NCBI RefSeq assembly: GCF_035084215.1
Contig: NC_090364.1
Span: forward strand, 4,712,001-4,776,000
Reading direction: 5' to 3'
Length of the DNA stretch: 64,000 nucleotides
DNA from: Heptranchias perlo
Lineage: Eukaryota
Shown here: positions 5,030 through 5,260 of the stretch, piece by piece
Layout: the number at the start of each line of letters is the position of its first letter
Position numbering within the stretch: position 1 is the first letter of the stretch
Program-made: the position numbers and the translations under genes
The notes under the pieces: generated by a model
What the model was told of the DNA's origin: nothing
What the model saw: only the letters and a program-made list of their open reading frames with translations
Database searches by the model: none

Positions 5030-5260
5030 TAAACAACTCTATTGAAGCAAGAAACTGAAAAACAGCCACCCAAAGCTCTATATTTATACTGCTGGTTAAT
5101 CCGGGGCGTGGCAGCCTAGATGATGAGTGACAGTTGGCAGTACCCAATCAGAAATTACATCCTCTCTCAGAACACCAATCAAGAAAAGGGAGGAGGGGAG
5201 ATGACACCCAGAGCCAGTCAGAACTTTGAAGGAGGAGCATCATTGGCTGACAATTCAATA
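5030..5260 (-). promoter_or_regulatory. Gene 1 promoter (TATA, CCAAT boxes) and eroded IRE-like relic in 5'UTR
   Basis: TATAAATA 5088-5081; CCAAT at ~5144 and ~5175; sense-strand TTTCTTGCTTCAA-TAGAGT-TGTTT at 5055-5030. Confidence 0.7.

Follow-up and report, generated by a model that had tools for sequence, protein, structure and literature searches.

Ferritin genes of a Heptranchias perlo array lack an iron-responsive element in their predicted 5′ leaders, and one leader holds a probable remnant

Translation and exon mapping revealed 12 ferritin genes in the 64-kb stretch of Heptranchias perlo DNA analysed here (hereafter, the window), none of which carries an iron-responsive element (IRE) in its predicted 5′ leader, while gene 1 very probably retains half of one. 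We read this array as a stockpile ferritin of the ovary or oocyte that has escaped from repression by IRPs and whose gene 1 still documents the loss, and put the probability of this reading at roughly 60%; the ovary expression that it invokes is taken from another shark, the Greenland shark.

Genes 1 and 2 lie on the minus strand (ATG at 5006 and 10894, respectively) and genes 3–12 on the plus strand. Intact four-exon frames of 173–176 aa, with 95–99% DNA identity, were found in nine of the 12 genes; two (genes 3 and 10) are damaged, and the window ends within gene 12. The genes are listed below; for genes 4, 6, 7 and 8, the Heptranchias perlo entry identical to the encoded protein is given.

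2461–5006, minus strand: coding region of gene 1, in four exons (4905–5006, 3500–3646, 2970–3095 and 2461–2616); 176 aa
7843–10979, minus strand: gene 2, from TATA-like box to stop; 175 aa, without IRE
12623–14842, plus strand: gene 3, a pseudogene with an early stop and a frameshift; leader with an insertion
18827–22023, plus strand: gene 4; 173 aa, without IRE; protein identical to P0018
24134–26969, plus strand: gene 5; 173 aa, without IRE
29104–31961, plus strand: gene 6; 173 aa, without IRE; protein identical to P0131
34111–36938, plus strand: gene 7; 173 aa, without IRE; protein identical to P0125
39117–42242, plus strand: gene 8; 173 aa, without IRE; protein identical to P0130
44410–47876, plus strand: gene 9; 173 aa, without IRE
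50147–52894, plus strand: gene 10; exon 3 not found; without IRE
56715–59837, plus strand: gene 11; 173 aa, without IRE
61888–64000, plus strand: gene 12, exons 1 and 2, ending at the window edge; shortest leader, without IRE

Exons 2 and 4 of gene 10 (50230–52894) join in frame and would give a protein of 131 aa. In pseudogene 3, an A-tailed, retroposon-like insertion of ~250 bp (12633–12892) separates the TATA box from the ATG; 11-bp direct repeats border it on both sides (12633 and 12882), and it has relatives at 5302–5478 and 12074–12287. Comparison of gene 1 (2461–5006) with genes 2, 4, 5, 7 and 8 revealed differences at 3–6 of ~55 four-fold sites, yet all three introns were unalignable (scores near shuffle level) and the promoters ~60% alike, a contrast between exons and introns that suggests exon-limited gene conversion or strong synonymous-site constraint.

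Alignment to the H chain showed that E27, Y34, E61, E62, H65, E107 and Q141, which we take to be the ferroxidase-centre residues, are retained in all nine intact genes. The window proteins are of the cytosolic type (173–176 aa, colinear with the H chain and devoid of a signal or leader peptide) and match solved H and M ferritin chains with an E-value of about 1e-84. Among the hallmarks of vertebrate cytosolic H/M-type ferritins, four exons, a length of ~175 aa and the lack of a leader peptide are thus shared by nine of the 12 genes, the 5′ IRE by none of the 12 leaders. In genes 4–11, the last exon stops three residues short, the final residue being H or N (173 aa), whereas genes 1 and 2 retain an acidic tail; both tail forms recur in other sharks. 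All intact window genes encode Cys at H-position 9 and Val at position 167, sites that are occupied by Arg and Glu in the conventional shark ferritin.

A protein search with exon 2 returned 905 proteins, and the closest among the best 120 of these were from sharks. A quick tree was built from 75 rows, namely 68 of those 120 proteins, six window proteins and one teleost M chain. In it, the window genes fell inside a 40-row shark-only clade (SH-aLRT 100) that was grouped largely by species and in which they stood with Carcharodon, Pristiophorus and other shark paralogues; the join of this clade to teleost M and amphibian/reptile chains was weak (85). The corresponding protein clusters comprised 180, 138 and 127 members, with sharks accounting for all of the 15 listed of each. 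Tree and cluster lists alike thus describe a clustered multi-copy family common to several shark orders. A separate, conventional ferritin is present in sharks and rays, its H. perlo member being P0196, whose contig has the length given for that of array member P0018. Several shark entries in the databases, P0002, P0007 and P0011 among them, consist of more than one ferritin and probably stem from gene models in which adjacent array copies were fused. Expression in oocytes was not read from RefSeq names such as 'oocyte isoform-like', which are assigned automatically.

A TATA or TATA-like box was found 62–97 nt upstream of the ATG in each gene (319 nt in gene 3), and the motif aligned in all ten upstream regions compared. 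The 5′ UTRs considered here are accordingly TATA-to-ATG leaders, predicted from TATA boxes rather than derived from RNA. An AG at TATA+33/34, conserved in genes 1 and 4–12, was taken as the predicted start site. Upstream of the TATA box, at a distance of 40–170 nt, genes 4–12 share three to five conserved CCAAT/ATTGG boxes and a TAATTG word at about −103, and genes 5–12 a conserved CRE-like word at −39 (the names CCAAT and CRE-like being our assumption). Likeness of the promoters to that of a teleost M gene was unclear (9–154 of 300 shuffles).

The preliminary description of this DNA, made from the letters and their open reading frames, had seen no IRE hairpin between TATA box and ATG, and model-based scans bear this out. 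Rfam searches at the gathering score returned no match in the whole 64-kb window, and the six matches at E ≤ 10 included no IRE. By scanning with 22 loop motifs of SIREs 3.0, an approximation of the SIREs server based on the motifs in the accessible part of its description (PMC12230718), we obtained no positive among the 12 predicted leaders, with both of two controls positive. The same scan over 1 kb of upstream sequence called one weak hairpin each in two of the 12 genes. Window-wide, there were 17 loose SIREs-type hits compared to 6–15 in 20 shuffles, none of them a complete canonical IRE and two pairs among them being repeats. A covariance model built from two teleost IREs (R1, run with filters off) gave seven matches at E ≤ 10 with a maximum of 10.8 bits. 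Five control vertebrate ferritin loci had IREs that scored 46–56 bits.

Two of these controls came from a pattern scan of metagenomes, in which two of 38 loci were teleost M ferritins (IRE of 51.6 and 46.2 bits); the other 36 were discarded as chance matches. The remaining three were found by protein likeness alone: three of six such loci had a leader, and all three leaders bore an IRE (53–56 bits). These six, all of them animal ferritin contaminants and none from a shark, came from a scan of genome contigs. L039–L044, P0097 and P0070 are animal ferritins (rodent-like, teleost-like and elasmobranch-like) that occur as contamination among the contigs of bacterial assemblies. No hit to a translated-IRE motif was obtained in the N-terminal extensions of 194 proteins, few of which cover the leader.

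These scans bear on whether the mRNAs might still be iron-regulated, be it by means of an IRE that an upstream non-coding exon or an alternative promoter supplies, or because IRPs bind at a non-canonical site. The excess of loose hits over shuffles would be in keeping with such control, as would the AG with acceptor-like context that the leaders of genes 1, 2, 3, 4, 9 and 12 contain, and the upstream hairpins, which are of motif 1 and belong to genes 10 and 11 (~640 nt upstream). The latter are defective, however, with an open N7–N25 pair, two G-U pairs and a different preferred fold, and each gene has a conserved TATA and CCAAT promoter of its own. As the window spans the upstream spacer of every gene, and neither Rfam at E ≤ 10 nor R1 found an IRE there, an IRE-bearing upstream exon, named in the preliminary description as one case that would overturn its view, appears unlikely from the sequence, and we regard hidden iron control as the least probable of the alternatives weighed here.

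The leader of gene 1 is laid out as follows:

5079–5088, minus strand: TATA box, 82 nt upstream of the ATG
5052–5059, minus strand: predicted start site at A5056 (TATA+33), whose surroundings resemble the usual initiator consensus; alternatively a possible splice acceptor
5042–5055, minus strand: probable remnant of the IRE 5′ arm, comprising lower stem, bulged C at 5047 and 5′ strand of the upper stem
5036–5041, minus strand: changed apical loop, UAGAGU, absent from the 22 SIREs 3.0 motifs
5031–5035, minus strand: place of the 3′ strand of the upper stem, broken; rest of the IRE 3′ arm absent

Read on the minus strand, 5055–5042 is identical to positions 3–16 of the Rfam IRE_I consensus (14/14), agrees with two teleost IREs at 12 of 12 positions and aligns locally with L023 at 17 of 19, the comparison being with the Rfam consensus and teleost IREs. 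The bulged C of the conserved 5′ arm is found in gene 1 only. The match was the best of 4738 windows of 54 nt and was reached by none of 2000 mono- and none of 2000 dinucleotide shuffles, with any 12-nt IRE word arising in 12 of 20,000 pooled shuffles of 11 leaders. Across both strands (128 kb), an exact 12-nt IRE word occurs just once, in gene 1, where it sits in sense orientation in a ferritin leader.

The other half of the element is not recognisable. The loop is neither a six-base CAGWGH nor a listed variant, the upper stem forms one of five pairs in register (three of five with a 5-nt loop), and the 3′ arm of the lower stem was unmatched in the alignment. The region folds with an energy of −0.4 kcal/mol, compared to −12.2 and −7.8 kcal/mol in the controls, and no better than shuffles (z-scores of +0.64 and +1.17). 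An intact 5′ arm with changed loop and 3′ arm is what the preliminary description had made of gene 1, and its letters and coordinates, here as well as at gene 8, match the window sequence. Compared to RF00037, the IRE_I of vertebrate H/M ferritins, gene 1 thus shares the 5′ arm, the bulged C and the sense orientation in a ferritin leader, and would be cap-proximal given the start site predicted here, but differs in its unlisted loop, its missing 3′ arm, the lack of a hairpin and a score of 12.4 bits (E 7.1; gathering threshold 34) vs. 46–56 bits. Judged by its sequence, we therefore class it as a probable IRE remnant and not as a member of the family.

Could the match have arisen by chance, where a U-rich leader coincides with an initiator or splice acceptor, in a family from which any trace of an IRE has long gone? 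The low Rfam score and the absence of the site from the seven R1 matches would fit this, as would its position: the remnant begins at TATA+34, its first bases overlap the initiator-like and acceptor-like context (the cap site being predicted), and its bulged C lies at TATA+42 vs. +66 in the teleost M gene L012, i.e. 24 nt closer to the TATA box. In the same vein, leader comparison with shuffles revealed no remnant in genes 2, 3 and 4. Chance is nonetheless hard to reconcile with the extent of the identity, with its absence from all shuffles and with the sense placement of so rare a word in a ferritin leader, and we deem it improbable. Moreover, covariance models score pairing and are thus expected to miss half a hairpin, so that the gene 1 match is, on the strength of its letters, very probably an IRE relic. 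The leader of gene 1 is also short, with the ATG at TATA+83 vs. +232 in L012, which would fit a history in which the 3′ arm was deleted together with most of the leader and the loop then underwent two changes. A second block shared between shark and teleost M leaders, near the ATG, was weak (255 of 2000 shuffles for gene 1, 2 of 2000 for gene 11 and 56–1954 for the others).

A shorter look-alike had been pointed out in the array copies, gene 8 serving as the example:

39154–39169, plus strand: look-alike in gene 8, where the homologous site of gene 1 holds the remnant; within the range of chance

The look-alike exists, but its standing as a relic does not hold up: the likeness was reached by 202 and 321 of 2000 shuffles and, for the other ten leaders, by 87–1529 of 2000 mononucleotide shuffles. 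An anchored test of 11 leaders gave 3 and 19 of 3000 for gene 5, and 384 and 1153 for gene 8. With gene 8 within shuffle range and only gene 5 low in one anchored test, we consider a relic in the array copies unproven; the gene 8 sequence is compatible with deeper erosion. The leaders of genes 5–12 are 30–65 nt long and 65% identical, whereas the adjoining promoters are 95% identical, and we found no common replacement hairpin in these leaders and no predicted pairs within them. Being variable and without common structure, they indicate that nothing conserved replaced the IRE.

Such free variation in leader length is also what passive loss would leave behind, that is, decay of the IRE without benefit, either once the duplicated genes were confined to one tissue or amid many redundant copies, with masking of oocyte mRNA, ferritin turnover or similar controls limiting the output. 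That two of the 12 genes are damaged agrees with this. On the other hand, not one of the 12 copies keeps the IRE despite the high identity of genes and promoters, and CPE-like words (as we take the motif scored at the 3′ ends to be) occur upstream of the poly(A) signal in only one of 11 3′ ends. The literature cuts both ways: in the accessible part of one study, many invertebrate ferritins lack an IRE and its absence correlates with divergent paralogues (PMC8395497), which would favour passive loss, while the shark ferritin expansion is described as old and syntenic in the accessible text of a preprint (10.1101/2024.09.09.611499), which would not. Overall, we hold passive loss to be unlikely, though less so than either alternative above.

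According to the accessible text of that preprint, the Greenland shark has 155 FTL and 179 FTH1 copies; three clusters are syntenic with the white shark, the age is put at 250 My or more, and the largest cluster shows ovary-specific expression (10.1101/2024.09.09.611499). The expansion in Greenland and white shark resembles the present array in being clustered, rich in full-length copies and shark-wide. It differs in scope, as the same text deals with copy number, synteny and ovary expression and does not contain the word 'iron'; a second Greenland shark preprint does not contain the word 'ferritin' (10.1101/2025.02.19.638963). The first labels the genes FTH1/FTL, with at least 90% identity to human (10.1101/2024.09.09.611499), which is a poor fit to the window proteins. 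We infer that the Greenland shark genes belong to the same family as the H. perlo array.

Ferritins without an IRE have been described elsewhere, as far as the accessible parts of the respective sources go. Snail yolk ferritin (Lymnaea, Biomphalaria; PMC10799875) and schistosome ferritins (PMC9128280) lack an IRE, as do the window leaders, and are tied to egg provisioning. Snail yolk ferritin is, however, a single gene whose product has a signal peptide and a 42-aa insertion (PMC10799875), whereas the window proteins have neither and are multi-copy; the shark array may thus work like snail yolk ferritin without being homologous to it as a subfamily. Among mammals, FTMT lies outside IRE/IRP control and mouse Fthl17 forms a small germline family, both being vertebrate paralogues whose expression is restricted; FTMT lacks introns and is mitochondrial, and FTHL17 has lost its ferroxidase activity (PMC7760355), in contrast to the shark genes, which keep four exons and ferroxidase residues. 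The salmon ferritins H1, H2 and M1–M3 are likewise four-exon paralogues in a fish, yet all five keep the IRE (PMC4117605). Ferritin mRNA is reported as abundant in vertebrate ovaries in the accessible part of another source (PMC1488847), and human L-ferritin IRE mutations lead to unregulated overproduction (PMC11719527).

Our literature search, with most subscription journals outside its coverage, found no paper on IRE loss in shark ferritins or joining their expansion to it. The expansion itself, its ovary expression and IRE-less ferritins in other lineages are therefore known, and had been missed by the preliminary description; no report seems to exist of the IRE loss in the H. perlo array or of the half-element in gene 1. 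Two of its broader statements have to be narrowed. Loss 'from all copies' applies to the 12 predicted leaders and is overstated beyond them, as the family is much larger than these 12 genes. Similarly, the escape from iron-dependent control that it proposed is suggested by leaders without an IRE and would concern the array subfamily only, since the same species has the separate conventional ferritin P0196. Its suggestion that copy number and transcription set the output may hold, but translational control of another kind and turnover of the protein could play a part too.

If the array does feed an oocyte stock, its history could have run as follows. The array subfamily would have been duplicated from a conventional IRE-bearing cytosolic ferritin as part of the shark-wide expansion, and the IRE lost, most simply by deletion of its 3′ arm and most of the leader. 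The remaining leader of ~30–65 nt could not be bound by IRP1/IRP2. Lacking an IRP site, the mRNAs would be translated regardless of iron, so that many copies under an ovary promoter could build a stock: the growing oocyte or follicle would transcribe many copies and translate them whatever the cytosolic iron level, and the resulting ferritin might provide a very yolky egg with both an iron store and a redox buffer. Gene 1 would then be an old member at the array edge, divergent in its non-coding parts, in which the scar is still visible. The parallel would be to the IRE-less snail yolk ferritin, albeit in a cytosolic, intron-containing gene.

All conventional vertebrate cytosolic ferritins examined as controls carry the IRE, and the IRE/IRP model is left unchanged by our findings, because IRE-less ferritins were already known. 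An array of intact, intron-containing ferritin genes without an IRE would provide a regulatory reason for the published, as yet unexplained shark expansion with its ovary expression, and suggests convergence with the egg ferritins of snails and schistosomes. In a bolder version, to which we lean somewhat less than halfway, the array may be a vertebrate counterpart, evolved in sharks, of invertebrate yolk ferritin: a catalytically intact cytosolic ferritin that escaped IRP repression when its IRE was deleted and which was then amplified to about a hundred copies for giant oocytes, with gene 1 as the record of the enabling step.
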